Assembly (NCBI GenBank): GCA_964497435.1
Contig: CAZCCD010000002.1
Span: forward strand, 10,050-74,049
Reading direction: 5' to 3'
Length of the DNA: 64,000 nt
Source: Candidatus Woesearchaeota archaeon
Lineage (GTDB): Archaea > Nanobdellota > Nanobdellia > Pacearchaeales > GW2011-AR1
Positions within the stretch are counted from its first letter, which is position 1. Each line of letters begins with the position of its first letter. The position numbers and the translations under genes are program-made. Of the stretch, positions 3,867-62,541 are shown piece by piece. The notes under the pieces were generated by a model. The model was not told where the DNA came from. It ran no database searches and saw only the letters and a program-made list of their open reading frames with translations.

Positions 3867-6467
3867 TTAAAGCGTAGCTTGCTTCTCTCCTAACAAAGCC
3901 TGACCATACTTTCCATCAAAACCAGGCTTGACTCTTATTTTTCCTTCTCTATTTTTCAAAATCAAATCTATTAATTTTGCATCAACGTTATTTTTAATAA
4001 AATCAGTTTCAGGAACATTTAATAAAATATTAAACTCATTACCAAAATTTTGGATTAAAGAATTATATCTTTTCCAAACACTGACAGAATTCATATCGAC
4101 TCCAAAATGCAAGGCAATTAATTCATGCAAAGGAAGTAATTTATAAAAAGGTTTTGCATTAATTGGTTTATGTCCTAAAGGAAATTTAGCAATTTTGTCA
4201 ACCCTATTATCCACACCAATTGTCAACGGTTTTTTGCAAATAGGGCAAAGTCCATTGAGTTTTTTTGTTTCTTCTGGTGAACAAGAAAAATTACAGTTTC
4301 TATGTCCATCATAATGATATTTTCCATATTCAGGAGGAGTTTCTATTGTTGCCTTTAATCCTTGTCCTGTCCTTATTGCCTTCATAATATTTTCATAACT
4401 TAATTCTTTAAGCTCAAATATAGTTGCCTCTCTTCCAATCCTCCACGGCCAAAAAGAATTATGAACAACCAATTGATTAGCAAGATAATTCTTATAACCA
4501 GGAACAGAGATATCATAAAGATAATCAACATCTGACTTAACATTATTAACAGATTTAACTTCTGCAAGGATAAAATCACCCACTCTCTTCACTTTAGACA
4601 TCCTAAAAACCTTAAGATTATTAACATATTTATTTAACTTATTTCTTTTAATATTATGGTTAAATCCAATTTTCTCCCTAAACTTTCTCAAATTCTCCCC
4701 ATAGAGAATCAAATTATGACGATATTTCTGCTTTTTCTTCTCTAATAAATTTAAATAAACTGAACTAAAAATTTCAAACTTTTTTAATAAAGAATCAATT
4801 TGATATAATAACAACTTATTAGCTGAACATCCCTTAACACCATGATCATCTAAAGAACCTTCTGCATCAAAAAATCCTCTTAAAAATCCAGATATTTCAT
4901 TCAAGGGTGCGGAAAAAATCGAACGAGGTATTCTCCTTATTTTGCTTCTAAAAACAGACTCTGGAAAGTTTAACTCAAAGAATTTAGCTATTGCAGAAGG
5001 AATAACTAAACCGTAAGAATGTTGTTGAGAATACTTAAACAGCCTAGAGCTACAAGAAAATAGATTTTTAATTACATCTTGATAATATCTTAAAATATCC
5101 TTGTTCTTATCTGTTAAGATTAAACACTTCCCCCTATTTATCTTAGTCATACAACCATCTCCAATAAAATATCCCAATAGTTCAAAAAGTTTAATAGAAG
5201 AATAATTTGGAAAACTAACCATAGGACCCATATGTTTACAATAATTACCTGTAAATAAGTTATAATCTAAACTAAGAATTTCAACTATTTTTTTTAATAT
5301 TTTATCATTAATTTTTACAACTCCTTTCTCAATTTTCCAATAATGGTTTTTATCTATTCCTAAAAAATCAGCTAATTGTTTCTGTGTTAATTTCCTTTTA
5401 TTTCTTTTAGACCTTAAAAAAGAAAGTCCATCTCTGCTTAATGAAAAATATATATTAATATCTGGTTTCTTCATTAATATACTTCCTTCGTCATTATGGG
5501 AGATATATGCGGATCTAATTAACAGGTCTCCTTTTTTCAAATGAGAGGCAAACTTTTCTATTATAACCCCTTTCTCCCACACATAAAATCTATGTTTATC
5601 AGAGACTTTTATCTCACCTCCAGCATATTTGATTTCTTTCAGCATATTTGGAGATAGTATCTTAGAATACTGAGCTTTAACTCCATTTTTATAAGACATA
5701 TCTTTAAAATCGGCGTAAGCTACTATACCTTCATCTTTAATTTCAGAGATGGGAACAGTGTAACCATTCTCCAAGGTAATAAAAGTATCGGGATGCACAC
5801 AGTGAGCGTCTGAAAAACTAACAACATTAACATTACCTTCTCCAATCTCTCCTAATCTCCAGGCCATAGAAGGATCAGCGCTCATCCCTGATTCAATTGC
5901 ATAAATTTTATCTGTCTGATCTTGAAAACACTCTTTTAATGAATCAAATCCAGAATCACTCCCATATAAACCGAACCAAGGCGTGAATGCATGAGCAGGA
6001 ATAATTTCAATTTTGTCTTCAATTTCTTTTAAGTCTTTAACTAAATCTCTACATGTTATACCAAATATAGGCCTTCCATCATAATCCAATCTTCCTTTGC
6101 TTCCAAGATAGCTTGTTATTTTATCTGCGATTTCTCTGTTTGACGCAAAAACCAAAAGATGGACAGCCCTTCTCTTTCCTCCTTGAGAAAACATCAAGCT
6201 TACTTCTGTCTGCCATAAAAAAGGAAAACCATTGACAGTTCTTAAAATTCCTTTATCATCTTCTGTCAATTTTTCATCAATTTCTTTCCTATGCAATGGA
6301 TGCTGAAAATCCCCAACCCCCATCAAACCAAGACCTTTTACTCTCCCCCATTTCTCAAGATTATCAATGCTTAAATCCTTAGAAGTTGCCCTTGCATATT
6401 TGGAATGAATCTGTAAATCAGCAATAATAAAACTCTCGTTAATCATAATAATCAAGAAATAAAACAC
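3867..6467 (-). CDS. endonuclease Q (EndoQ, PHP-domain nuclease with C-terminal zinc ribbon) interrupted by a LAGLIDADG intein
   Basis: ADLQIHSKYARATS...MGVGD, VHLLVF, IPAHAFTPWFGLY, MSADPSMA, SFSDAH|[intein]|SFWPWRIGRE...CPICKKPL follow the Pyrococcus EndoQ order; host ~418 aa + intein 448 aa. Confidence 0.7.
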   Translation of the reverse strand: MFYFLIIMINESFIIADLQIHSKYARATSKDLSIDNLEKWGRVKGLGLMGVGDFQHPLHRKEIDEKLTEDDKGILRTVNGFPFLWQTEVSLMFSQGGKRRAVHLLVFASNREIADKITSYLGSKGRLDYDGRPIFGITCRDLVKDLKEIEDKIEIIPAHAFTPWFGLYGSDSGFDSLKECFQDQTDKIYAIESGMSADPSMAWRLGEIGEGNVNVVSFSDAHCVHPDTFITLENGYTVPISEIKDEGIVAYADFKDMSYKNGVKAQYSKILSPNMLKEIKYAGGEIKVSDKHRFYVWEKGVIIEKFASHLKKGDLLIRSAYISHNDEGSILMKKPDINIYFSLSRDGLSFLRSKRNKRKLTQKQLADFLGIDKNHYWKIEKGVVKINDKILKKIVEILSLDYNLFTGNYCKHMGPMVSFPNYSSIKLFELLGYFIGDGCMTKINRGKCLILTDKNKDILRYYQDVIKNLFSCSSRLFKYSQQHSYGLVIPSAIAKFFELNFPESVFRSKIRRIPRSIFSAPLNEISGFLRGFFDAEGSLDDHGVKGCSANKLLLYQIDSLLKKFEIFSSVYLNLLEKKKQKYRHNLILYGENLRKFREKIGFNHNIKRNKLNKYVNNLKVFRMSKVKRVGDFILAEVKSVNNVKSDVDYLYDISVPGYKNYLANQLVVHNSFWPWRIGREATIFELKELSYENIMKAIRTGQGLKATIETPPEYGKYHYDGHRNCNFSCSPEETKKLNGLCPICKKPLTIGVDNRVDKIAKFPLGHKPINAKPFYKLLPLHELIALHFGVDMNSVSVWKRYNSLIQNFGNEFNILLNVPETDFIKNNVDAKLIDLILKNREGKIRVKPGFDGKYGQALLGEKQATL
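4458..5801 (-). mobile_element. intein (448 aa) in EndoQ with LAGLIDADG homing endonuclease domain and an internal HTH
   Basis: Begins CVHPDTFITLENG right after the catalytic SDAH, ends VVHN followed by S; two dodecapeptide motifs LLGYFIGDGCMTK and FLRGFFDAEGSL; HTH-like LTQKQLADFLGIDKNHYWKIEKG. Confidence 0.8.
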
Positions 6468-6658: not shown

Positions 6659-9600
6659 TTATTGTCTCAACCTATATAAAATCACAATGACTACTGCTGC
6701 TATTAAAACAGCAACAATAGCCCAAAGCCACCAATAGCTTTTTCCTTCTTTAGTAACTTCCTCTGTTTCACTTACAGCTGCTCCTGTGATTGGAGATCCT
6801 GCTTCCTCTTCTTGTTCACTAGAAGGTGTGCTAGCAACAGGATCTGAAGTTGCAATAATTTTTATATTTGCTTTATTCGTTCCATTTGTAGCAGCTATAC
6901 TGTTAAGGGTCACAGCAACATCATAAAAGTTATCTCCTGTAACCTCAAATTTCTTTGTTTCTCCAATAGCAAAAGTAGATGTTTGAGGCGTGCTCGAAAC
7001 TTTAACAGTAGCTGCTGCTACTGTTACACCAGTAAGCTCAACAAAATGATACTCACTATTTAAAGTAAATCTAAGTTTATCATTAACATTTAAATCCCTT
7101 GAATATCCTGAATTAAATTGTGACTCACTGACATCGTGTATTGAACCTGCAGCACCTGCACCTCCATCACTTGAGGAACTAGAAGATGATGAGCTGCTTC
7201 CTGAAGAAGGCGCATTTCCAATAACATTTGGTGCAACCCCAGAGAAATGAGGCACTCTTATGTATATCATATTTGAAGTAGTATTAATATAACAATATTC
7301 TGTATTTGTAGTTCCATTGAGATTAGAATCTGTCTTACTACATGTTCTTCCAGCAGTTGTTAAAAAGTTTCTATAACCTGTTGAATTATAAGACCTATTA
7401 TTTGAATTTCCTAAATACTGGTCAATATCTGATGTTATATTAGAAGTTGTATGGCCTAAAGAAGCGTTCCAAACAACATTCCAGTTCTCGTCGTAAAGGA
7501 AAGGTATTGAGACATTCATGCTGCCTGCATCATTGATTACAGAATCAGAATAAGGCATCCCAATTACCACATAGTCATAAACTTCTGAAGGAACAAAACT
7601 TCCAAATTGCCAGACCTGATTTGCACTACTTCCACCACTTGATGCCTGATCATTTATGACACTCTCCATTGGGGGTTGTTTAGCCGAGAACATGTCAAAA
7701 TTATAGAAAGTTATTGTTGTATTTGATGAAATAAGTTTCATCTCCATATTTATCTTTCCGGCAACCAAGGCCTTCAAAGGATTAAATTCTGAATTATTCA
7801 TAGCTGTTAAAACGCAAGAAGAGCCTGGATTTATTCCATCACAAGTTGAAGTTGATCTTATGAACCTCATGTTTATTGGAAAAGCAGAGACATTCATTTC
7901 TTCAAGCTGTCCAGAAGAATTAACTTTTCTAAATCCTAAATCACCATCTCCTTCATTCATCTGAATTATAGTTATGTTATTTACGGCTTTGCTTAGATTA
8001 ATTGTTTTTTCAGTTGGGGGGGCTTGATTAGGGAACAATTTTATCTTTGCTATAACATTTCTAGGTATTGGCCAGACAAAACTTCCTTGAGAAATCTGAT
8101 TATCCTCAATTATATAGTGTAGTTCGCCAAAAGTACTATCATTTCTAAGATACAAATCTACATGGGGGGTATCATCTGTAATTAAACCACCAGTAGAATT
8201 CACAAAGTTAATTGTCACTTTTGTTGCATTTACGTCTCCACCAGTGGCATTATTATAAGCTCCAGCAAGAGGACCTAAAGTAACATTTTGAGTCGTTGTT
8301 GCAGAAAGGCTAACATTTTGTAACATTCCCACGTACTCTGCAACACCATCATGAGTTGAATTTGTTGTGTTTTTTGCATAAAACTCTAAAAGATAATTAG
8401 AATTCAGCAAGCTTATATTATACCACGCAAATTGGCCATTCATCGTACAAGGAGGATTAGATTGATTTAATTGTGAAGTCGATGATAAATTAAGCTCTCC
8501 TGTATCTTTCATTGGAGGAACAAAACCAGTCCAAGGCATCATTCTTGGGATTATTGATGTAACATTTCTTATTGGTGTTAAATTTCCAGAAACTCCGATA
8601 CATCCTGATAGATAAACTCTTGTAACAGTCAAATTAAGTTGAACATTTAATACCTGACCAGCCACTGTAGGAGTAACTGTTGAATTTGATCTTGGAGGTG
8701 CAGGACAGTGCGTCGCATTCATAAACTGACCATTGCATGTTGACCCATTTCCAAATGAGAATCCGCTAATTCCTGTGAATGGCTCTCTTAAAACCATAAT
8801 CGTATACTGTCTATTCAATGGAACATAAACTTGCTTAACACTTACATTTGTCCTAAAATTACTTTCAATTGGAAATCCTGCTTTTTGCTCCATTACTTCA
8901 TAGCCAAATAACTGCCACCCGCCTGCAGTCGTATTTATTGCACTAATATTAATAGTTGCAGCATCTTCAACATAGAAAGTTGTTCCATTAAGTGTTGGGG
9001 GTTTCATAAATTCATTCCCTTGAAAGTCATCAAAGTCAAAACTAGGCAATGGGTAATACATCATTGCAGGGAAAGGAGGTAATATAGTCCCAACTTTAAT
9101 CACAGAACCACTTGCATTTTCATGTGTTGAATTAGAACCTTGCCTATAATACATCTTTAACAAGAACAAGTCTGCAGAGCTATTAATATTTGACAAAGTA
9201 AAAGAACCATCATTACCACTTAAAGCACTAGCTACAAAAATCTCTTTTGGCGGGCCATTTGGTTGCTCAGCAAATTGATAAATAGAAACATTGGCTCCTG
9301 TTACATTATGACCTGTTTCATTTTTTATATAACCTGAAAAAGCAAAATTAGTTGTAGTTGATGATGTTGAGGCATTCCATCCTCCATTATCCCTTGTCAC
9401 ATTAAGGCTTATATTTACATTTTGGCCTTCTACTGAAGTAACATTAAATGCAAAATTCTTTGTTGTTCCCCATTTGAATCCTCCTGCTGTTAGATTCCAC
9501 CTTAAACTACTAGAAGTATTAATAAAAGATGACCATGTCGCATTTGTGGAATTTGAATTAGAAACAAATGTAACGCCCATAGGCAATGAAAACTCAACTA

Positions 9601-10234
9601 CAGTTACATTAGATGTATCGTCTGATTGCCCTGTTATTGAAAAATTAACTTGAGTATTTGCAGATCTATTTATAGAAGTTGGATTTTGAGAAACCGCAAA
9701 AGGGGTTATACCATTTATCCTTATACTTATTGTTGTAAAGTTTATGGGAGAGTGCGAAGAATTTGAGGTTGAAATATTTAAGGTGTATGTTCCGGGGATT
9801 GATGTTGTTGCATTAAACCAAAAGTATTGCAATCCATTAGACGCCCAAAGATTAACAAGACTATTCATTGATGCATTAGTCCAATTCAAAACAGTGCTGG
9901 TAGTCATACTTGAGTTTGATGTGACATTAAATGTATTTGCTACAATAACAGTGCCATTAGAAGTGCCGTTAGAAGTATCAGTAAAAATAAAACCGACAGG
10001 AAGTACAATACTAACTAGCGTTACATTCATCGTACCTGCAACAGTATCTGTGTTATTTATAGAAATGTTATATGTAAATTCTACATTTTCATTCACTGAA
10101 AAAGATGTTCCGCTAACAGGTCCTATTATATGCGCCGCAAAAACAAGATACAGAGAAAGAACTAAAATTGCACTTACAAATAAAAATAAACCTATCTTAA
10201 TCCTACCTCTTTTATCCATCTTCCCTTTTAACAT
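6659..10234 (-). CDS. large secreted surface (S-layer-like) glycoprotein, N-terminal signal/anchor, poly-Ser linker, conserved C-terminal module plus TM anchor
   Basis: 1191 aa; N-terminal hydrophobic segment; very many N-x-S/T sequons throughout; SSGSSSSSSSSSSDGG linker; C-terminal YWWLWAIVAVLIAAVVIVILYRLRQ. Confidence 0.6.
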   Translation of the reverse strand: MLKGKMDKRGRIKIGLFLFVSAILVLSLYLVFAAHIIGPVSGTSFSVNENVEFTYNISINNTDTVAGTMNVTLVSIVLPVGFIFTDTSNGTSNGTVIVANTFNVTSNSSMTTSTVLNWTNASMNSLVNLWASNGLQYFWFNATTSIPGTYTLNISTSNSSHSPINFTTISIRINGITPFAVSQNPTSINRSANTQVNFSITGQSDDTSNVTVVEFSLPMGVTFVSNSNSTNATWSSFINTSSSLRWNLTAGGFKWGTTKNFAFNVTSVEGQNVNISLNVTRDNGGWNASTSSTTTNFAFSGYIKNETGHNVTGANVSIYQFAEQPNGPPKEIFVASALSGNDGSFTLSNINSSADLFLLKMYYRQGSNSTHENASGSVIKVGTILPPFPAMMYYPLPSFDFDDFQGNEFMKPPTLNGTTFYVEDAATINISAINTTAGGWQLFGYEVMEQKAGFPIESNFRTNVSVKQVYVPLNRQYTIMVLREPFTGISGFSFGNGSTCNGQFMNATHCPAPPRSNSTVTPTVAGQVLNVQLNLTVTRVYLSGCIGVSGNLTPIRNVTSIIPRMMPWTGFVPPMKDTGELNLSSTSQLNQSNPPCTMNGQFAWYNISLLNSNYLLEFYAKNTTNSTHDGVAEYVGMLQNVSLSATTTQNVTLGPLAGAYNNATGGDVNATKVTINFVNSTGGLITDDTPHVDLYLRNDSTFGELHYIIEDNQISQGSFVWPIPRNVIAKIKLFPNQAPPTEKTINLSKAVNNITIIQMNEGDGDLGFRKVNSSGQLEEMNVSAFPINMRFIRSTSTCDGINPGSSCVLTAMNNSEFNPLKALVAGKINMEMKLISSNTTITFYNFDMFSAKQPPMESVINDQASSGGSSANQVWQFGSFVPSEVYDYVVIGMPYSDSVINDAGSMNVSIPFLYDENWNVVWNASLGHTTSNITSDIDQYLGNSNNRSYNSTGYRNFLTTAGRTCSKTDSNLNGTTNTEYCYINTTSNMIYIRVPHFSGVAPNVIGNAPSSGSSSSSSSSSSDGGAGAAGSIHDVSESQFNSGYSRDLNVNDKLRFTLNSEYHFVELTGVTVAAATVKVSSTPQTSTFAIGETKKFEVTGDNFYDVAVTLNSIAATNGTNKANIKIIATSDPVASTPSSEQEEEAGSPITGAAVSETEEVTKEGKSYWWLWAIVAVLIAAVVIVILYRLRQ

Positions 10235-39655: not shown

Positions 39656-41509
39656 CTAATTGGTTGACCTCGAAGCACTATTGTCTACCTCATTGCCTCC
39701 AGTATTTCCTTGATCATCACTAGCTATACATCCTAAATAACCATTATTAGAAGCTGTCTGTCCTGCATCATCTCTGCTGAAAACATCTACAGGATGTATA
39801 ATTGCACACCAAATTTTTTGTAATAAACCAGCTTGTTTTTCTAGCTCTTGTTTAAGCAAGGTGCATTTTCCTTCTATACATACATTACTCTTACATTGAT
39901 AATCCTCGACACAACTCTGTCCTTCGTTCTTAGCACTCTCATATTTTAAAGTAAAAGGACTGCAATATTTTAACACCCCTCCAATTTCTGCCCTTGTTTT
40001 TGGAGAAATTCTAGGCCCTCCTTCAACAACAGGCTCGCAACTAATACCTCCTTCTTCTTCAGGAACTATACAGGCTCCTTTTTCACATCCATCATCACAT
40101 CTAATTATCTCTTCTTTTAACTCGCCAGACTCACAGTATAATTCCTTTAAATATGATCCTTTTTCTAAATCAGGACCTGTAAGAGAATCTCTACAAGAAT
40201 CTTGATAAATATCCTGTCCATTGACTAATGTAAATGCCCATTCATAATAGTTCTTTCCAAAATCACCGTCAGCGCAAGTTATCTCATCTTTTATGTCAAG
40301 AGGAACAGGAGCAGGACCAGTAGGAGAAATATAAGAAATTAAATAAACAATATCAGAGCTCTTAACTTCCCAGTCACCATTTACATCACCTATCCATAAA
40401 GGACTAGGAGCTGCTCCTCCTTTAAAAACATAATTTACAAGGTAATTAACATCTAGCTGATTAATACTCCCGTCTTTAGTTAAATCTCCTCTTTCCTTGA
40501 GAACAGGAGCTGGAGCATTTTTATTTAGATAATTTTCAAGATAAGTTATATCAGATGTTTTTACCTGACTATCACCATTTACATCACCTATCCATAAAGG
40601 ACTAGGAGCTACTCCTCCTTGAAGGACATAGCTTATTAATAGATTTAAGTCAGAAAAATCAATTTTATTATTTTTATCTAAATCTCCTACAACATAAGAA
40701 ACAGGGGCTGAGGCTCCGGTTGCACCATTTAAGTAATTTTGAAGGTAGAGTATATCAGCATTGCTTACATCACCATTTCCATTTACATCTCCTATCCATT
40801 CTGGAGATGGGGGAGTACCTGCCCTTAAAATGTAATCTGTTAAAAGATCAAGGTCTGCATTATTTATAATCTTGTTTTTGTCTAAATCTCCTATAAGATA
40901 TGATACAGGATCTGGAGCATCAACATTGCGACTTAAATAATTTTCTAAATAAGTTATATCTCCAACACTAACATCATTGTTTCCATTAACATCTCCTAAT
41001 TCAATAGGATCAGGAGCAGGGCCTGCTCTTAAAATGTAATCTGTTAACAAGTCAAGATCATCACTATCTATTACTCCATCTTTGTTTATATCGCCTGTTT
41101 GAAGAGGAACTGGTTTAGGACCCCTCGGAGAAATGTAAGAAATCAAATAAGTTATGTCTGCATTATTTACTATTTTGTCACCATTTACATCTCCTAATTC
41201 AATAGGATCAGGAGCTACTCCTCCTTTAAGAACATATTCTATTAAAAAATAAACATCTTCTATATCAATCTTCCCATCAATATTAACATCTCCTCTCTTT
41301 AATTCTATTTCAACATTTGTTTTAGAATCAATCCTCGTGAGATCTTGGCTTTCATTGATAGCAAAACCAACAATCCCTATTCCTGCAATTAGTATAGCAA
41401 GAGAAATAACAATTGAAATAACAATTACATACCTCTTTTTTCTGGCTCTATTTTGACCAGAGGTAGAGGCTTTGCCTCTTTTTTCCATGATATGTATAAC
41501 AAAAAACAC
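39656..41509 (-). CDS. membrane-anchored surface protein built from ~10 tandem dockerin-type (EF-hand-like Ca-binding) repeats plus C-terminal Cys-rich domain
   Basis: N-terminal TM; repeated ~33-aa units GDVN.DG.V...DI.YL..Y...GG.AP.P (e.g. GDVNIDGKIDIEDVYFLIEYVLKGGVAPDPIEL). Confidence 0.55.
   Translation of the reverse strand: MFFVIHIMEKRGKASTSGQNRARKKRYVIVISIVISLAILIAGIGIVGFAINESQDLTRIDSKTNVEIELKRGDVNIDGKIDIEDVYFLIEYVLKGGVAPDPIELGDVNGDKIVNNADITYLISYISPRGPKPVPLQTGDINKDGVIDSDDLDLLTDYILRAGPAPDPIELGDVNGNNDVSVGDITYLENYLSRNVDAPDPVSYLIGDLDKNKIINNADLDLLTDYILRAGTPPSPEWIGDVNGNGDVSNADILYLQNYLNGATGASAPVSYVVGDLDKNNKIDFSDLNLLISYVLQGGVAPSPLWIGDVNGDSQVKTSDITYLENYLNKNAPAPVLKERGDLTKDGSINQLDVNYLVNYVFKGGAAPSPLWIGDVNGDWEVKSSDIVYLISYISPTGPAPVPLDIKDEITCADGDFGKNYYEWAFTLVNGQDIYQDSCRDSLTGPDLEKGSYLKELYCESGELKEEIIRCDDGCEKGACIVPEEEGGISCEPVVEGGPRISPKTRAEIGGVLKYCSPFTLKYESAKNEGQSCVEDYQCKSNVCIEGKCTLLKQELEKQAGLLQKIWCAIIHPVDVFSRDDAGQTASNNGYLGCIASDDQGNTGGNEVDNSASRSTN
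40298..41296 (-). repeat. coding tandem array of ~10 dockerin-like 33-aa repeats inside 39656..41509
   Basis: Periodic GDVNG/GDLDK ... YL.NY ... AP.P units read from the translation; coordinates approximate. Confidence 0.6.
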
Positions 41510-42035: not shown

Positions 42036-44654
42036 TTAATTACTATAACTGTAACGTGCATCACAAGGAGCAGAGGGTTCGCAGAGATTATATGAATCTG
42101 AATCTTCAGGGTAACAACCAACACTCCCTGTACATGATACAACCATTGCTTCTGGCTCACCTGAAACTGAATTTGAAGTAGCCCTGCAGCCAGCATATTT
42201 AGTGCCTCCACAACCTGAAGAACATCTACCATAACATGTAACTAAAACTTTTGTTTTTGATTCTGTTGTCTTATCCCCTTTTATTATAACTTGGTTGCTG
42301 GACTCGGATTCTGCTGTCTTAGCATTTAAGACTAAAAATGAGCTATCACTAATTCTAATAGCTTGAGGGTTAGTTTTACTCTTCAATCCAAAAATTCTTC
42401 TAAATAAAGATGGTTTTGATTCTTTTTGAGTCTGTGAAAAATAACTTTCAACACCTTTCAAAGCTTCTTCTTTGTTTTCAGGGATAAGCTGAGGCGTACC
42501 TCCACTCCCACTAGAAACACAATTACATTGCGGAACAGGACCTGCCTTGAATATATAGTTAGTTAAATAAATAATATCCCCAGAATTTATTCCTGCGGAA
42601 TTATCAACATCTCCAATACATGATGGATTTGGAGCAGGCCCTCCTTTAAATACATAATTGATTAAATAAACAATATCTCCGGCAGTAACTCTGCCGTCAT
42701 TATTAACATTTCCGCAAATGTAATGAGGAATGTCTTCGGGCACACAGGCTCCATCAACACAGCCATATACACATTCGTCTGAAACAACTTGTGGTTCTGT
42801 TCCACTGCAGTAATATTCATTTAAGACATTAGAGTGTGAAATTAGTTGAATCTGTGCATTTACTCCTCCGCCAACAGGTCCTTCATTAGCATTCAACAAA
42901 TTAACAATAACTCCAAGAATCTCTTTAGAGGTTCCTTCTATTATTTCTTTAGTCTCAGATGCTCCTAGACTATTAGTTACCTTAATCGTGGCAGAAGTAT
43001 CTGTAGCACTTATTAATTCAAAAGTGTAATACTCTCCTTCATAATCTGCACCAACACTGGCTCCTATCGATAGTGTAAAAGAACTAAGACTTTCTCCACA
43101 CAGATCTTGTTTTGAATAAGATTTTCCATAACTATCATACCCATAAACACTTCCAACAGTAAACCACATTATTCCTCCATCTGTATCTGTGCAGGAAGCC
43201 GTCGTTATGCCTGAGCACTCACTAAATTTAATATAAGCTCCATTTGTATTGTCATAAGATTCAAAAATAAAATGTAATTTATCAAAAACAGGGTTTGTCC
43301 ATGTCTGTCCTAATTTAATCTCGTCATTATCTGAATCAGAAGCGAAGAAAGAGACAATAAATCCTGTAGTAGAAGCCCAACTCGCACCACTTCTTGTTAC
43401 TAAAGTTCCATCTACAGGTATTCCATCAGATCCACGAATTACTTCAGAACCATGAGTTAGTTTTAATACGTCAGAACCAACAAATAACTGTGCTCTAATA
43501 ACTCCAAAAGAGTCTTCATCAACAACAACAAGAGAAACAACTACGCCTTGTATTTCTTTAAAAGAGTATTCACTTATTTCTTTTATTTCAGATGCTCCAT
43601 TTGAATCAGTGACTTTAATAGTTGCAGAAGTGTCTGATCCTGAAATCAATTCAATTGTATAAGTCACTCCATTAATTAATGTTTCTACTTTTGAAGGTTC
43701 AGATCCTCCAAGAGATACATCTACTTTTCCAACAGGCCCTGTTCCCATTCCCAACAAATATAAATCACTAGCCGTAGTTCCAGCTCCAACAATATATTCT
43801 TTATCAGATAAAGATATTGGTTCTCCAATAGAATCAAGATGAGTAAAATCTACAGCTCTATTAAAGATTATATTATACCTATAAAGAGGTCTAGAACTAA
43901 TTGTACTCATCTGAACATGAACATAACCTGTGTCATTTTCAAGAGTGTTGTTTCCAATAGTTAAAGTCTGCACAAAATTTGCACCAACGTTTCCTTCGAA
44001 AATTCCATCAGCTAAAATAGTTGGAATATCTGATTTAGTCAGAACGGTCTTTACTTTGTTAATAGGATCTCCAATAAACAATTTAGAACTAGGAGTATGT
44101 AAATAAGCACTCTCGCATGTTGGCTGAACACATCCTTCATCAATGCCTAAAGCACAATTGTCATCAATTCCATTGCAAACCTCTGCCATGCCAGGATTTA
44201 TATTTGGATTATTATCGTTGCAGTCTTGAGGGTCGCAACTATCTCCAACCCCATACCCATCATTATCATTGTCTACACATGTTGAAGGTATACAAATCCC
44301 ATTACTGCATCCACCAGGACATGGTGTACAAATTCCTTCAGTCCAGGTTTGTGTGCAGTTTCCAGTTATATTATTGCATTGAAAATAAATAGTTGAGGTG
44401 CAGGCGTCGTTTCCAGAACAATACTGTGTTGTTATAGGAGGACAATCAGAATTTGTCGTGCATGACGCAGTTCCACTAGTCACAGACGAAACATATCCTT
44501 GAACACCTTGAGCATAGCTTGATTCTTCAATTTCAAGCACAGGAGATTTTCTTACAGCTTCGCCTGTTGGAGATTTTCCTATGTTTGCAATAAGAATAAC
44601 TATAACAAGAACTAAAGCTACCAAACCCAAAAACATCACCCTCTTTTGATCCAT
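42036..44654 (-). CDS. large secreted Cys-rich surface protein with internal duplicated domain and one dockerin-type repeat pair
   Basis: Signal/TM at N-terminus; duplicated ~45-aa segment (TYTIELISGSDTSATIKVTDSNGASEIKEI vs YYTFELISATDTSATIKVTNSLGASETKEI); GNVNNDGRVTAGDIVYLINYVFKGGPAPNP/GDVDNSAGINSGDIIYLTNYIFKAGPVP. Confidence 0.5.
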   Translation of the reverse strand: MDQKRVMFLGLVALVLVIVILIANIGKSPTGEAVRKSPVLEIEESSYAQGVQGYVSSVTSGTASCTTNSDCPPITTQYCSGNDACTSTIYFQCNNITGNCTQTWTEGICTPCPGGCSNGICIPSTCVDNDNDGYGVGDSCDPQDCNDNNPNINPGMAEVCNGIDDNCALGIDEGCVQPTCESAYLHTPSSKLFIGDPINKVKTVLTKSDIPTILADGIFEGNVGANFVQTLTIGNNTLENDTGYVHVQMSTISSRPLYRYNIIFNRAVDFTHLDSIGEPISLSDKEYIVGAGTTASDLYLLGMGTGPVGKVDVSLGGSEPSKVETLINGVTYTIELISGSDTSATIKVTDSNGASEIKEISEYSFKEIQGVVVSLVVVDEDSFGVIRAQLFVGSDVLKLTHGSEVIRGSDGIPVDGTLVTRSGASWASTTGFIVSFFASDSDNDEIKLGQTWTNPVFDKLHFIFESYDNTNGAYIKFSECSGITTASCTDTDGGIMWFTVGSVYGYDSYGKSYSKQDLCGESLSSFTLSIGASVGADYEGEYYTFELISATDTSATIKVTNSLGASETKEIIEGTSKEILGVIVNLLNANEGPVGGGVNAQIQLISHSNVLNEYYCSGTEPQVVSDECVYGCVDGACVPEDIPHYICGNVNNDGRVTAGDIVYLINYVFKGGPAPNPSCIGDVDNSAGINSGDIIYLTNYIFKAGPVPQCNCVSSGSGGTPQLIPENKEEALKGVESYFSQTQKESKPSLFRRIFGLKSKTNPQAIRISDSSFLVLNAKTAESESSNQVIIKGDKTTESKTKVLVTCYGRCSSGCGGTKYAGCRATSNSVSGEPEAMVVSCTGSVGCYPEDSDSYNLCEPSAPCDARYSYSN

Positions 44655-57648: not shown

Positions 57649-60600
57649 CTAAAACCACTTCTTCAAAGCTTCTTGCTTTTCTTCTTCCTTGCCAAATATG
57701 CTATCAATATATCTTTTGACTAACTCCAAATTCTGATTTATATATGGAGAGAGATTATATTTCTTAGCCAATTCTAATGCTGGCTCCAGATATTTTTTTA
57801 TACCTCCTTCATGAACTGTGAAGATTATCTTTCCGTTACATTCAGGACAAACGCCTTTCAAAGGAGGCCTTCTCATAATATTATTGCAGGCAACACATCT
57901 GAAGTCTTGTATTGAAAAATTTCTGAGATTTCCTTTCATATCCCTAATAAAGTGTCTTTCAATTATTAGTCTAGCAGTATCTGAAGTATCGGCTGCCCTT
58001 AATTTTTCAACAAGCCTCATTTGATGTTTCACTTTATCTTGCATTGTTGCCAGGGTTTTATAGCTCGAACATAAAACACCTTCATTAAAATTAGAAGTAT
58101 CGTGAGTAAAATTAATATTCAAAAAAGGATCTTTTCCTTCTTCTAAAATATCTCTAACCATGTAGACTTTAACTTTTGAAGAATGCTCTCCTCTTTCAGC
58201 TGCCTCGTAAAGTTCTAAAGGATACTCTTTAACAACCTCGAAATCTAGAATTTGTTCATCAACCTCTCCTGCATCTATCTTAGCATTTAAAACAAGAGGA
58301 GCATCTTGGGTTCCACCCCTATGGCTTGGTAAAAATTTTCTTGAAAAATTCAAGAGGACGTCAGACAAAAGCATAATAGCTGCCTCATCACCATCGCATC
58401 TCGTATTGATTATCTGTTCCCCCCACAAAACATTCCTATCCTCTTTTTCTTTCCATTCTATTTCTAAACAATAAGAGTTTTTTTCTTCTTTAATTACTTC
58501 AACTTTTTTAACATAATCTTCTACATAATCACTTTTAGCAACTAAAGGAATTTGTTTACCATTATACTTTAAAAATCTTTTTTCTGCAGGATGTAAAAAT
58601 TTAATTTTTTCGGACTTTTGAGAATTAATAACATTCAAAATTTTACCCAATTTAAAAGAATCGTAAACTCCTAAAACCAAATGATTTAAAATATGTTTTT
58701 TGGGAATTTTACCTAATTTTTCATACTTATCCAAAACCCTCTTCCCAGGAAGTCTTAAATCCGTTCTGAAATATCTTCCAAAAACTCTAAACTTTGATAA
58801 AAGTAAAGTTACGTCATCGAGTAATTCTCTTGAAACAGAGTAAAAGACTATATTTTTTCCTTTGATAATACTTCCATCACCATCAAAATAAGCAGAGATA
58901 TACTCTTTAACTAAATCCTTATTCAAACCAAAAAAAAATCTAGGGACTCTTTTATCATATGCTCCTTCGCCACACCCGATAAACTTAATAAAATAATAAA
59001 CCAATTTACTACAAACCATTATTTTTGTATTATCCTCTCCTAAACTTGCTTTCATTCCAAAAACTTCTCCTATTAATTTGATAAGATGGTCTTGCATATC
59101 TTTATTACAAATTCTAAAACTAACTTGTGAAACCCATTTGTTGGTTCTTGAATAGCCTTCTGCAGCATAATAACCTAAAAATCTAATCAGATTTTCATTA
59201 ATAGGAATAATTGCGGGGATTTTATGATCAGAAGAGACATATTTTAATTTTATATCGTGATAACTAATTTCCTTATTAAAAGTTTTTTCCTTATAGAAAT
59301 CAGACAAATTTATTTTTTTCCCATCAATAAAAACAAAAATTTTTTTCTTTTCTTTTTCTGAAAGTTTTTCTTTAAAAAGTTCAATTAAATTAACTTCTTT
59401 AATATCCAATTCAAAATTAAAATTTTCCAATACAGGAAGTTTATCATCAATTTTTAATTCCTTAGCTTCTTTAAATTTGAATTGCTCATCTTCTATATAC
59501 ATAAATTTATGGGTGGGCGTCATAATATACTCCCTATTTGTTGCTGTTGTAACCTTTATCCACTCCCGGGTTATTGGACCTTTTATAAAATATTTAATTT
59601 TCTTTTTCTTTAGTTCATGAGTAACTGGATCGATTCCTAATGCGTAAATATTTTTATTGTTTTCAACTGAAATGGTTCCAAAAGAATCAATCTTTTCTGT
59701 TTTTGCCCCTTTTTTTATTAAATTTTCAACATAATTTCCTATATCATCATAAAATATTTCATCATTATTCTCATTATAAAAAAATATTTTGGTTGTCGGA
59801 TAAACACAGTCTCGTCTAATTGCAGCATGCATGAAAGGACTTGCTAAAAGCCCAAGAGTGTTTGAAAATCCAATAAACCTACAAATTACTCCGGCACAAT
59901 TATGAGGAGCCATGCAAACACCTAATTGTCCTATAAGATCTTCTCTTTTCCTCACATTATGGATTGGCTTTAAACCATAAATTCTTTCTAACATTTCATC
60001 GATAAACAAAGATATTCTCATGAAAACATTATCCGCCCCTTCTTCAGGTGAAGAGGCGTAACCAGGAAGCAAGATATCATGGGGTTTTAATTCTAATATC
60101 TGATCATCTTTTTCCAAAGGCATTCCATAAATGTCCTCATTATAACCTAACTCTTTTAATTTTTGAACACCCACAAAAATTTCTTTTGGTTTAAACGCTG
60201 TTAAAGGTATTTCAGTAACATCATATCTTATAGTTCCATCTTTATTAACCTGTAAATCATATTTTGCCCTTAAAATTCCTTTAGAAAGATTTTCAATAGT
60301 CTTATCTTCTGAAGACAATCCTCTAACACCCTTCACTAAAAGAGGTATCTCTTCTTTATTCAAACCAAGTTTTTCAATACTTTTGTTAAAATAATAACCA
60401 ATATCTATAATTCTATTATAATAAGGCACTCCTTTACTATTTTCTAATTCTCTCTTAAAACTTAATTGTTTTTTTTCAAAAAAATAAAATTGTTTTTTTG
60501 TCTTCTTCTCACATTTTTCACATAAAGGATAGATTGTCTCTATTTTACATTCTTCACAATAAAAAGTTGGAAAAGAGCCCCTTACCTTTCCAACTTCACA

Positions 60601-62541
60601 TGCTTCTTGAACACTCCTAAACCTTCCTCCCTCATTTCCTACAGGGAATAAAACATTTGGGCTTCCAGTTAATTTTCTAAGTTTTGCCTTTTCGGGCCTA
60701 CCCATTCTTGATCCTATAAATTCTCCAGCCTTGTCTTTAATATTCACTTCACAAACACTGTTAATTATATCTAAAGGATTACTACCTTTAAACTTTTCAA
60801 AGTCAACAATATCTTTTAGTAAAACATTTTCATTCACAGAATCAAAATTTATTCCAAGATTAAACAAAAAAGCCCTACTATTCTCTTCGTTAAGAACAAC
60901 GTTTTCAATAGTAACGTCGTGTTCAATACCTAACAATTCTAAAGCCCTTTTTCCTACTTTAAATTTTTCTTGTTCGATTTTAGTATATGGAAAAATAAGT
61001 TTATTATCCACTTTCGCTCTTTTTAACCATTCGATCAATCCGCCAAATTCTTCTTTAGAAATTTCTGTCCAATAAAATATAAATTTGGGGTGAAGAGGTA
61101 TCATGAATTTTCTACTTAGAGATAGTGCGTCTTTAAAAGAAATATTAAAAAAATCTATGGTTTCTTCAGCTTCTTTACTTTTCTTTCTTAAATCAAGAGC
61201 CCACCACTCTTCAACGTATCCTGGCTTGACTAAAAAAGCATTTCTATTTGATAAATCTCCAAAAGGAAATAACATATCCCCAAGATAAATTATTTCTTCC
61301 ACATCAAGATTATATTTTTTTGCTTCTTCTTTTGATTTAATTTTTTTTACAGAACCATTAAACAATTTTATTATTGGTCCATCAATCATATCACAACTCG
61401 TCACTATACATCCTTTAGTCGGTTTCTCTAGTTTTAGTTGAGTGCCTGTCGCAATAAAACCATCTGTTATTTCCATTGTAGCTGGATGAATCGATGTCGC
61501 ACTAAATCCTGAAATCCTACTCCTCCCATACCTAAATCTAAAGCCTCCTGAATTTCCTGGATGCCCAAAAACAGGCCTTCCTGCAACTAAATCCTTAATA
61601 TAGACTGGAGAAAAATCTCCTTTTTCTTTACCTCTTTTTCCATGAATCTTAATATACTCTTCTAAAAAATCCCAGTCAGTTAATTTGAATCCTTTTTTTC
61701 TTAGAGAATAAATATATTTCTGAATTTTTGCGGCTTTTTGTGCTAAGCCTTCTCCAATCACAAGACAGAAACCGCTCCTAAGCATATTTGTATCTATTCT
61801 CTCTAGATTTTTATAATTAGAAACCTCAAATTTTTCTGACGGCTCTCCAGAAATTTGTAGAGGAATATTTTTAGCTAAAAACAAAGCTTCTTCTTCGGTA
61901 GGCATGTACTGTAGATTTGTTATTCTCTCATGGTAGTCGGTTAATTCTATAAACGTTCTTTTTGCTTCTTCTTCTGTTGGATCGTATTTTTCATATCCAA
62001 ATATCTCTCTTAAATGATCAATTATTACTAAAGAAAAAGCGGCTCCTGTTCCTCCTGCACTCCTTACCGGTCCAGAAAAATAAGGACAAAGATATTCTTT
62101 TCCTTCTCTTGTTTTCATGATTTTAATTTCTGTCAATCCTTCTATAGGAGAAGACACGACTCCAAGAGTCATATACGCAAAACCAATTCTTGCACCAGCT
62201 TCTATGGCCTCAAGAATATTTCTAAACTTACAGAATTTTTGTTTTGCGACCTCTTCTGCAATTTGAATGCTTACAGCAGGATCGAGTTTCCCGTATTTTT
62301 TTTCTAACTCAAGAATCCTCTTATCTATACTAGAGTTTTCCATTTGAGGATATAAAGTAGAAATGAGGCCAACAACTTTTTCTGCCATTGACATGGCAAG
62401 AGGAATCTCAACTTTATCTACAGGATCAAAACCCCTAGCCCTAGCTTCTTCGGCAACATTGTAGACTTTCATGACCTCTTCTTTAAATGATTGAAAATAT
62501 TGTTTTGTATTCATTTTAATTTTTTTAAAACCTCTTGCCAA
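57649..62541 (-). CDS. DNA polymerase II (PolD) large subunit DP2, interrupted by a LAGLIDADG intein
   Basis: N-terminal DP2 signature (ARGFDP...VEIPLA), Zn fingers CEECK...CEKCEK, catalytic region ...MHAAIRRD|[intein]|TRCDGDEAAIMLLSDVLLNFS; 1630 aa minus ~468-aa intein is about 1160 aa. Confidence 0.9.
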   Translation of the reverse strand: MARGFKKIKMNTKQYFQSFKEEVMKVYNVAEEARARGFDPVDKVEIPLAMSMAEKVVGLISTLYPQMENSSIDKRILELEKKYGKLDPAVSIQIAEEVAKQKFCKFRNILEAIEAGARIGFAYMTLGVVSSPIEGLTEIKIMKTREGKEYLCPYFSGPVRSAGGTGAAFSLVIIDHLREIFGYEKYDPTEEEAKRTFIELTDYHERITNLQYMPTEEEALFLAKNIPLQISGEPSEKFEVSNYKNLERIDTNMLRSGFCLVIGEGLAQKAAKIQKYIYSLRKKGFKLTDWDFLEEYIKIHGKRGKEKGDFSPVYIKDLVAGRPVFGHPGNSGGFRFRYGRSRISGFSATSIHPATMEITDGFIATGTQLKLEKPTKGCIVTSCDMIDGPIIKLFNGSVKKIKSKEEAKKYNLDVEEIIYLGDMLFPFGDLSNRNAFLVKPGYVEEWWALDLRKKSKEAEETIDFFNISFKDALSLSRKFMIPLHPKFIFYWTEISKEEFGGLIEWLKRAKVDNKLIFPYTKIEQEKFKVGKRALELLGIEHDVTIENVVLNEENSRAFLFNLGINFDSVNENVLLKDIVDFEKFKGSNPLDIINSVCEVNIKDKAGEFIGSRMGRPEKAKLRKLTGSPNVLFPVGNEGGRFRSVQEACEVGKVRGSFPTFYCEECKIETIYPLCEKCEKKTKKQFYFFEKKQLSFKRELENSKGVPYYNRIIDIGYYFNKSIEKLGLNKEEIPLLVKGVRGLSSEDKTIENLSKGILRAKYDLQVNKDGTIRYDVTEIPLTAFKPKEIFVGVQKLKELGYNEDIYGMPLEKDDQILELKPHDILLPGYASSPEEGADNVFMRISLFIDEMLERIYGLKPIHNVRKREDLIGQLGVCMAPHNCAGVICRFIGFSNTLGLLASPFMHAAIRRDCVYPTTKIFFYNENNDEIFYDDIGNYVENLIKKGAKTEKIDSFGTISVENNKNIYALGIDPVTHELKKKKIKYFIKGPITREWIKVTTATNREYIMTPTHKFMYIEDEQFKFKEAKELKIDDKLPVLENFNFELDIKEVNLIELFKEKLSEKEKKKIFVFIDGKKINLSDFYKEKTFNKEISYHDIKLKYVSSDHKIPAIIPINENLIRFLGYYAAEGYSRTNKWVSQVSFRICNKDMQDHLIKLIGEVFGMKASLGEDNTKIMVCSKLVYYFIKFIGCGEGAYDKRVPRFFFGLNKDLVKEYISAYFDGDGSIIKGKNIVFYSVSRELLDDVTLLLSKFRVFGRYFRTDLRLPGKRVLDKYEKLGKIPKKHILNHLVLGVYDSFKLGKILNVINSQKSEKIKFLHPAEKRFLKYNGKQIPLVAKSDYVEDYVKKVEVIKEEKNSYCLEIEWKEKEDRNVLWGEQIINTRCDGDEAAIMLLSDVLLNFSRKFLPSHRGGTQDAPLVLNAKIDAGEVDEQILDFEVVKEYPLELYEAAERGEHSSKVKVYMVRDILEEGKDPFLNINFTHDTSNFNEGVLCSSYKTLATMQDKVKHQMRLVEKLRAADTSDTARLIIERHFIRDMKGNLRNFSIQDFRCVACNNIMRRPPLKGVCPECNGKIIFTVHEGGIKKYLEPALELAKKYNLSPYINQNLELVKRYIDSIFGKEEEKQEALKKWF
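58405..59808 (-). mobile_element. intein (~468 aa) in PolD DP2 with LAGLIDADG endonuclease; C-terminal IIN|T rather than HN|C
   Basis: Starts CVYPTTKIFF after RRD; motifs FLGYYAAEGYSR and YISAYFDGDGSI; ends ...NVLWGEQIIN then TRCDGDE (penultimate Ile, +1 Thr). Confidence 0.75.

Follow-up and report, generated by a model that had tools for sequence, protein, structure and literature searches.

Among inteins that carry a homing endonuclease, accessory domains change cleavage behaviour and are usually located after the endonuclease (PMC8966425). Those of TliVMA and PI-TkoII have been called helix-turn-helix (HTH)-like and likened to the 434 repressor; the hypothesis put forward there is that inteins captured such domains from transcription factors, and the DNA recognition region (DRR) of PI-SceI is the only such accessory region shown in a complex with DNA (1lws; PMC8966425). 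A close described system for the host protein is EndoQ of Pyrococcus furiosus (PfuEndoQ), in which two Zn ions are bound by His8, His10, Glu76, His84, His139 and Asp193. About half of wild-type activity is left in an H8A mutant, and mutation of His195, which lies outside these six Zn ligands of the 5zb8 structure, nearly abolishes activity (PMC5961232). A 2015 survey contained no reported EndoQ-like protein from Nanoarchaeota (PMC4357722). Here we describe an endoQ-like gene that contains an intein with an HTH domain ahead of its endonuclease. It lies in a stretch of 64,000 nucleotides, hereafter the window, from a Candidatus Woesearchaeota archaeon (contig CAZCCD010000002.1 of assembly GCA_964497435.1, positions 10,050 to 74,049). 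We read this locus as a mobile class-1 intein in the gene of an EndoQ-family lesion-specific nuclease of a DPANN-type archaeon, with the HTH serving as an accessory DNA-binding domain, and place the probability of this reading at roughly 0.7. The nearest relatives and a PolD gene in the window point to a DPANN-type host.

The open frame runs from 3867 to 6467 of the window on the minus strand, as do all parts of the gene described below, and encodes 866 aa if counted from the GTG at 6467. A database protein of 859 aa (P0008) is 100% identical and begins with MINESF at the ATG at 6446, and a TATA-like AT-rich stretch is found ~25 nt upstream of that ATG. Both observations point to the ATG at 6446 as the probable start, giving a gene at 3867..6446 (859 codons plus stop, intein included). 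The N-extein (5802..6446) contains most of the PHP domain and ends in ...VVSFSDAH, a limit taken from the alignment to 5zb8 and from invariant alignment columns. The C-extein (3870..4457), delimited by the same 5zb8 alignment, contains the end of the PHP domain (SFWPWRIGRE...) and the Zn-binding domain, and ends in QATL. An initial annotation, made from the letters of the window, had named the host as EndoQ, colinear with the Pyrococcus protein, and this is borne out; exteins that fail to align contiguously, which it had set as the refuting outcome, were not seen. When the exteins are joined, the resulting 411 aa align unbroken across the junction with 5zb8 (query residues 8-406, chain residues 4-384, E = 1.1e-51), and colinearity extends through the PHP, Zn-binding and C-terminal helical domains of the P. 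furiosus enzyme (5zb8, 7k30-33; E = 1e-51). The splice junction maps inside Pfu 'NSDAHSPNP'. PfuEndoQ contains no intein, in contrast to the 448-aa intein found here.

Seven of the eight EndoQ metal-binding or essential residues checked are kept (the equivalents of Pfu His10, Glu76, His84, Arg114, His139, Asp193 and His195). The eighth, the first His of PHP motif I (ADLQIH codons, 6402..6419) and a Zn ligand as His8 in Pfu, is Gln here and in 7 of 16 aligned relatives, the remainder of which keep His. The intein had been placed at the active-site His; this stands in so far as the residue is the equivalent of the essential Pfu His195, but not if the term implies one of the six Zn ligands of 5zb8. 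Because the 448 residues part this Asp/His pair from the remaining barrel, the precursor would be expected to be catalytically incompetent. The Zn finger of the C-extein has the form H-x2-C...C-x2-C, with His715, Cys718, Cys734 and Cys737 invariant in the clade alignment; at this position (about 4290..4360) an invariant His takes the place of Pfu Cys249, compared with the C4 site of PfuEndoQ. Database copies of the protein are annotated with PF27218. The NCBIfam model TIGR00375 matches with 197.6 bits, which is below its equivalog cut-off of 326.6, and 'EndoQ-like' is for this reason a family-level assignment by sequence, the function of which is not certified by TIGR00375. The M. jannaschii protein of TIGR00375, MJ0043, is presumably the host of the intein named 'Mja hyp-1', for which our literature search gave no confirmation; if so, EndoQ would have been known as an intein host for a long time. 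A separate observation concerns the C-terminus (3867..3890), where the relatives finish with a conserved motif, Q-x-x-L-(x-x)-F, reminiscent of a PCNA-interacting peptide; the protein of the window stops at QATL, without the aromatic residue of its relatives. PCNA binding by EndoQ of Thermococcales is reportedly the topic of one study.

The intein occupies 4458..5801 and reads CVHPDT...QLVVHN, followed by Ser+1, as supported by Pfam, NCBIfam, an AlphaFold2 model and Foldseek. The N-junction is ...VVSFSDAH|CVHPDT, with the codon of Cys1 at 5799..5801, and the C-junction is ...QLVVHN|SFWPWR, with the codon of Asn448 at 4458..4460. Thus, both the 448-aa LAGLIDADG intein following SDAH and the canonical VVHN|S junction that the initial annotation had proposed are present. 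Profiles agree with this: Pfam Intein_splicing matches at 1e-19 (71 bits), LAGLIDADG_3 at 4e-21 (75 bits, in two stretches), and the NCBIfam models for the two intein ends both score above their cut-offs (intein_Nterm TIGR01445, 26.0 against 24.5; intein_Cterm TIGR01443, 24.1 against 15.6). Several NCBIfam equivalog models of intein-containing archaeal proteins also match it through their intein portions. The N-terminal splicing (HINT) lobe (5451..5801; beta strands at residues 7-121 of the model) contains Cys1 and a block B that reads S-D-K-H, where Ser takes the place of the usual Thr; Thr is found in two distant homologues. The C-terminal splicing lobe (4458..4589) contains block F (YLYDISV) and block G (VVHN), and matches the C-terminus of the Pho CDC21 intein. 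Cys1, His70 of block B, Asp430 of block F, His447, Asn448 and Ser+1 are invariant in an alignment of 17 inteins from the same site. A frameshift or misassembly is ruled out by the single unbroken frame and by the same architecture in 15 independent assemblies. Base composition was considered as a sign of foreign origin, the intein having 28% GC against 31-36% in the exteins. However, GC content at third codon positions is similar (0.22 against 0.20-0.25), such that the low GC of the intein reflects its amino-acid composition, and this candidate was rejected.

Nested between the splicing lobes is a two-motif LAGLIDADG homing-endonuclease domain (4614..5195), identified from LAGLIDADG_3, fold matches and motif alignment. 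Its two dodecapeptide motifs, which had also been claimed at the outset, are LLGYFIGDG (5154..5180) and LRGFFDAEG (4857..4883). Each has its catalytic acidic residue, and both residues are likewise present in 15 of 17 homologues. The motif-1 Asp has been lost in the other two, one of which reads GGG (P0014) while the other has a deletion (P0016); both keep the HTH, and the loss fits the usual decay phase of a homing cycle. The AlphaFold2 model, built from the 17-intein alignment (mean predicted local distance difference test score (pLDDT) 91.9, predicted template-modelling score 0.89), has an alpha/beta endonuclease domain with a two-fold build at residues 203-395 and the strands of the C-terminal splicing lobe at 410-447. 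A Foldseek search of this model against the PDB returned PI-TkoII (6e-20), TliVMA (3e-18) and PI-PfuI (4e-15) at the top, followed by PhoVMA and PI-SceI, and then by I-DmoI with a target-normalised template-modelling (TM) score of about 0.7.

The N-terminal splicing lobe is separated from the endonuclease by a Cro/C1 (XRE) HTH domain (5238..5438, intein residues 122-188). An XRE-like HTH at this position had been proposed from the string LTQKQLADFLGIDKNHYWKIEKG (5322..5390), which lies N-terminal to both LAGLIDADG motifs. The proposal is upheld by a Pfam HTH_3 match of 7.5e-10 (39.1 bits against a gathering score of 23), with HTH_19 (29.0 against 30.2) and HTH_31 slightly under their cut-offs. 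It is also upheld by five modelled helices (123-135, 140-147, 151-158, 166-175 and 180-187; pLDDT 90-93) and by profile matches to the XRE regulators 9sf2, 3mlf, C.BclI, MBF1, HipB, SinR, 434 repressor and 434 Cro. A chance match was considered and rejected. The domain has a net charge of +8 (homologue mean +7.6), and its presumed recognition helix reads NHYWKIEKG. All 17 aligned inteins from this site conserve the HTH, 16 of them with a Pfam HTH_3 match at E<=1e-3. The close clade shows hardly any variation in the presumed recognition helix, (D/N)HYWKIE(K/N)G. As had been remarked, such a domain is outside the standard intein blocks A-G; yet it is not peculiar to this locus, being found in these 17 inteins and in those of at least seven other host proteins (see below).

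Comparison with solved inteins reveals a shared plan and a different placement of the DNA-binding module. PI-TkoII (2cw7), TliVMA (7qss/7qsu) and PI-PfuI (1dq3) all share with the window intein a split HINT domain, a nested two-motif LAGLIDADG endonuclease and an extra DNA-binding module, at 14-16% identity. In TliVMA, PhoVMA and PI-PfuI, however, the accessory domain is behind the endonuclease, which starts near residue 140, whereas the window intein has a Pfam-recognisable Cro/C1 domain ahead of the endonuclease and no domain after it. In PI-TkoII the endonuclease is preceded by about 170 extra residues and begins only near chain residue 275, about 135 later than in the other solved inteins. 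This insert may be its 'domain IV'. The PI-SceI DRR, too, is an accessory DNA-binding region N-terminal of the endonuclease and enlarges the set of target contacts, but it is inserted within the HINT fold, is not a Cro/C1 HTH, and PI-SceI matches the model less well (TM about 0.4). WhiA likewise combines a LAGLIDADG fold with an HTH (8dy9 is among the Foldseek matches), but it lacks a HINT domain, has a catalytically dead LAGLIDADG domain, and bears an HTH of a different type at its C-terminus.

Searching with the full-length protein recovered 14 further clusters (at 90% identity) with the same architecture, 52-65% identical to the query; those that are named come from Woesearchaeota or Nanoarchaeota. 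Two more distant proteins (P0029 and P0032, 33-38% identity) contain homologous inteins at the same site with a recognisable HTH, as does each of seven found by exhaustive search (P0132-P0137 and P0141). Most of these nine have an extra insert after the endonuclease. An intein-only word-indexed search had suggested an orphan intein, with 7 weak matches and no HTH among them, but this appearance is due to the insensitivity of that search, and the full-length and exhaustive searches found its relatives. These are already in public databases, where they are mostly unnamed. Mean pairwise identity per domain was computed among the 15 close proteins. The endonuclease and the C-terminal splicing lobe (both 0.63) are at least as conserved as the exteins (N-extein 0.59, C-extein 0.54), the N-terminal splicing lobe has a value of 0.53, and the HTH (0.47) is followed by a linker with only 0.35.

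These values bear on a first alternative, in which the HTH would be a structural spacer or decaying passenger, devoid of nucleic-acid function and tolerated only because the loop that joins the splicing domain to the endonuclease is permissive. The HTH is the least conserved folded domain, solved inteins have a dispensable 28-32-residue loop at this position that is away from the DNA interface, and in many related inteins the link amounts to only 0-40 residues. We nevertheless regard this alternative as improbable. The presumed recognition helix is close to invariant although the linker next to it varies freely, and the domain is kept down to the 33-38% overall identity of P0029 and P0032 and across many hosts. 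Moreover, the fold is modelled with confidence and the positive charge is conserved. With the recognition helix constrained, the fold retained and the charge conserved, the HTH is likely to be functional.

EndoQ genes, with two intein sites, occur in archaea whose annotations read Woesearchaeota, Pacearchaeota or Nanoarchaeota. The window intein occupies the site after the His195 equivalent (site b). A second site (site a) is about 60 residues upstream, immediately after the equivalent of the Zn-ligand His139, where the junctions read ...IIPAH|CLLPD...VHN|CWTPWFG. In most related EndoQ proteins of 770-870 aa SDAHS is intact, and these hold an intein at site a. The site-a inteins have the same host gene, the same lineages and a position directly behind a catalytic His in common with the window intein, but they differ in having Cys as the +1 residue, and precomputed annotations contain Pfam HTH_3 in none of them. 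By regular expressions for the junctions, site a is occupied in at least 54 of the best 120 EndoQ matches compared with 17 for site b. The remaining 49 comprise 33 of intein-containing size (with a site-a N-junction in 4/4 inspected) and 16 that are intein-free (473-542 aa). One protein of 1331 aa (P0137) has inteins at both sites. Site b is empty in the relative P0023, which reads 'VVSFSDAHSFWPWRLGREAT', and relatives with an empty site carry the sequence expected from ligated exteins. Such patchy occupancy in close relatives, with site a, site b, both or neither filled, is characteristic of a mobile element.

The HTH is not restricted to inteins of EndoQ. An exhaustive HMMER search with the intein alone matched 2023 proteins at E<=1e-3, and about a third of the best 150 match an HTH profile in the stretch that links the N-terminal splicing lobe to the endonuclease. 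Hosts of such inteins, as classified by Pfam and by their exteins, are aRF1 (27 representative clusters), FttA/aCPSF1, a metallo-beta-lactamase RNase-like protein, DHH/DHHA1, MCM, GlmS and dCMP deaminase, such that the pre-endonuclease HTH recurs in at least eight host families, EndoQ included. The link from N-terminal splicing lobe to endonuclease is either 0-40 or 80-120 residues long, a bimodal spacing. The recognition helix depends on the host, reading TQxAISKxELG in aRF1 inteins as against DHYWKIEKG in EndoQ inteins. Among species-representative genomes, the HTH-bearing relatives come mostly from Woesearchaeota, Aenigmatarchaeota and Micrarchaeota. On a common origin of the HTH-bearing inteins, endonuclease-domain identity gives a mixed picture: nearest neighbours share their HTH status in 39 of 46 cases, but several inteins that lack the HTH lie no farther from the window intein than do the aRF1 inteins that have it. 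Since the module recurs in inteins of unrelated hosts, with helices specific to each, its function probably belongs to the intein and not to EndoQ. The literature search on inteins and HTH domains found no description of a Cro/C1 domain at the pre-endonuclease position, of EndoQ inteins or of DPANN inteins.

Two of these other hosts showed further features of their own. In a Thermococcaceae MCM gene (L026:493-7467, plus strand, contig DUII01000091.1), three inteins are contained within one frame of 2325 aa; in the first, a Pfam HTH_3 (residues 707-754) follows the endonuclease, and in the second an XRE-like segment that matches C.BclI (E = 0.008) precedes it. Related LAGLIDADG inteins are also present in GlmS on four contigs binned as Candidatus Omnitrophota (L004, L012, L016 and L018). 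In these and in a further GlmS intein (P0181) a gap of about 90 residues is found ahead of the endonuclease, which contains HTH_31/HTH_3 in P0181 and has no Pfam HTH match in L004.

Taken together, these data are best explained if the HTH_3 domain is an accessory DNA-binding domain of an otherwise ordinary class-1 homing intein. The intein would excise itself by an N-S acyl shift at Cys1, transesterification to Ser+1, cyclisation of the terminal Asn aided by the penultimate His, and an O-N shift, recreating ...SFSDAH-SFWPWR... as in the empty-site relatives. Once free, it would act as a single-chain LAGLIDADG endonuclease that cuts intein-less endoQ at the insertion point, an activity suggested by the intact catalytic residues and the patchy site occupancy among relatives. 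The predicted homing target is intein-less endoQ spanning a sequence of the type ...TCTGATGCTCAT|TCT..., and recombinational repair of the cut allele would copy the intein into it. The HTH would add contacts flanking the core target, raising affinity or refining the choice of site, in the manner of the PI-SceI DRR and the accessory domains of Thermococcales inteins. The data themselves show which domains are present, where the junctions lie, which catalytic residues are kept, and that the module is conserved and recurs; splicing, endonuclease activity and, above all, the target of the HTH are what we infer from them.

Several points weigh against this reading. The recognition helices, although specific to each host, could merely mirror the shared ancestry of inteins at the same site. 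Cro/C1 domains are usually dimeric and bind palindromes, and no sign of dimerisation was seen here, where dimerisation was not examined. The overall identity of the HTH is lower than that of the endonuclease, and the retention of the HTH in P0014 and P0016 in spite of their lost motif-1 Asp would fit a role that is independent of cleavage. Finally, VMA inteins join the N-terminal splicing lobe to the endonuclease by a 28-32-residue loop that is far from the DNA interface (PMC8966425), and a domain in this position is therefore not obviously placed to reach the target.

In another alternative, the excised intein would be a transcription regulator acting through its HTH, either as a WhiA-like domesticated protein or as an autorepressor of endoQ or other genes, and would be kept for this host function and not for homing. 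HTH_3 is a classic repressor domain and the matches include SinR, the 434 repressor, C.BclI and HipB. Transcription factors that combine LAGLIDADG and HTH exist, WhiA among them; the intein is conserved to the same degree as its host; and P0014 and P0016 retain the HTH with a damaged LAGLIDADG motif 1. However, unlike WhiA, the window intein and most of its relatives keep both acidic residues of the catalytic site. The module is also shared by inteins of many unrelated hosts, with a recognition helix that differs among them, and the patchy alleles at the two EndoQ sites bear the signature of mobility, all of which makes a regulator doubtful at best.

Least plausible, and in our view very improbable, is that the HTH is a sensor through which (damaged) DNA triggers or blocks excision and so switches the repair nuclease on, much like the RadA intein that single-stranded DNA stimulates: an intein in the catalytic centre of a DNA-repair enzyme implies that splicing gates activity, the N-terminal splicing lobe is the immediate neighbour of the HTH, and conditional splicing is documented for inteins of DNA-metabolism proteins in the passages of PMC8987985 that cite Lennon 2016, but the same HTH is found in inteins of aRF1 (translation termination), GlmS and dCMP deaminase, where DNA sensing has no obvious logic, and the sequence holds nothing that tells a sensor from a targeting domain.

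Elsewhere in the window, a second intein-like insert was observed in the gene for the large subunit (DP2) of DNA polymerase D (57649..62541, minus strand, 1630 aa), with Pfam Intein_splicing at residues 967-1362 and LAGLIDADG_3 at 1210-1267. Its C-junction looks non-canonical (...EQIIN|TRCDGDE, without a penultimate His), and no HTH was detected in it. The window also encodes large proteins of secreted or surface type at 6659..10234, 39656..41509 and 42036..44654 (all minus strand). Directly upstream of endoQ is a 1191-aa protein rich in Asn, Ser and Thr with a C-terminal membrane anchor; the other two contain dockerin type I repeats, and one of them also a MopE-like metal-binding motif. Scans of the window for tRNA and Rfam families found none.

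Taken alone, the locus in the window is of small significance, being a fairly ordinary member of a fairly large and poorly described class of inteins; what is of interest is the recurrent, under-described HTH ahead of the endonuclease and the invasion of EndoQ at two sites. For annotation, the gene should be given as a spliced 411-aa EndoQ and a 448-aa homing endonuclease, rather than as one 'hypothetical protein'. Being small, autonomous and host-specific in its recognition helix, the HTH could also be a natural template for the retargeting of LAGLIDADG meganucleases, which has already been tried artificially by grafting the 434 repressor into an intein (PMC8966425). It is conceivable, although we lean against it, that a large and so far undescribed intein lineage, mostly of DPANN, uses the HTH as a portable targeting module, in which retuning of the recognition helix would let one scaffold colonise new host genes (EndoQ, aRF1, FttA, MCM, GlmS, dCMP deaminase and others). 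If true, this would be natural evidence that inteins escape extinction by capturing the DNA-binding domains of transcription factors. The EndoQ of these archaea is usually invaded by an intein at one of the two sites, which makes it a natural system for competition between inteins, and the doubly invaded P0137 could be used to ask, in a natural setting, whether neighbouring inteins interfere with each other.

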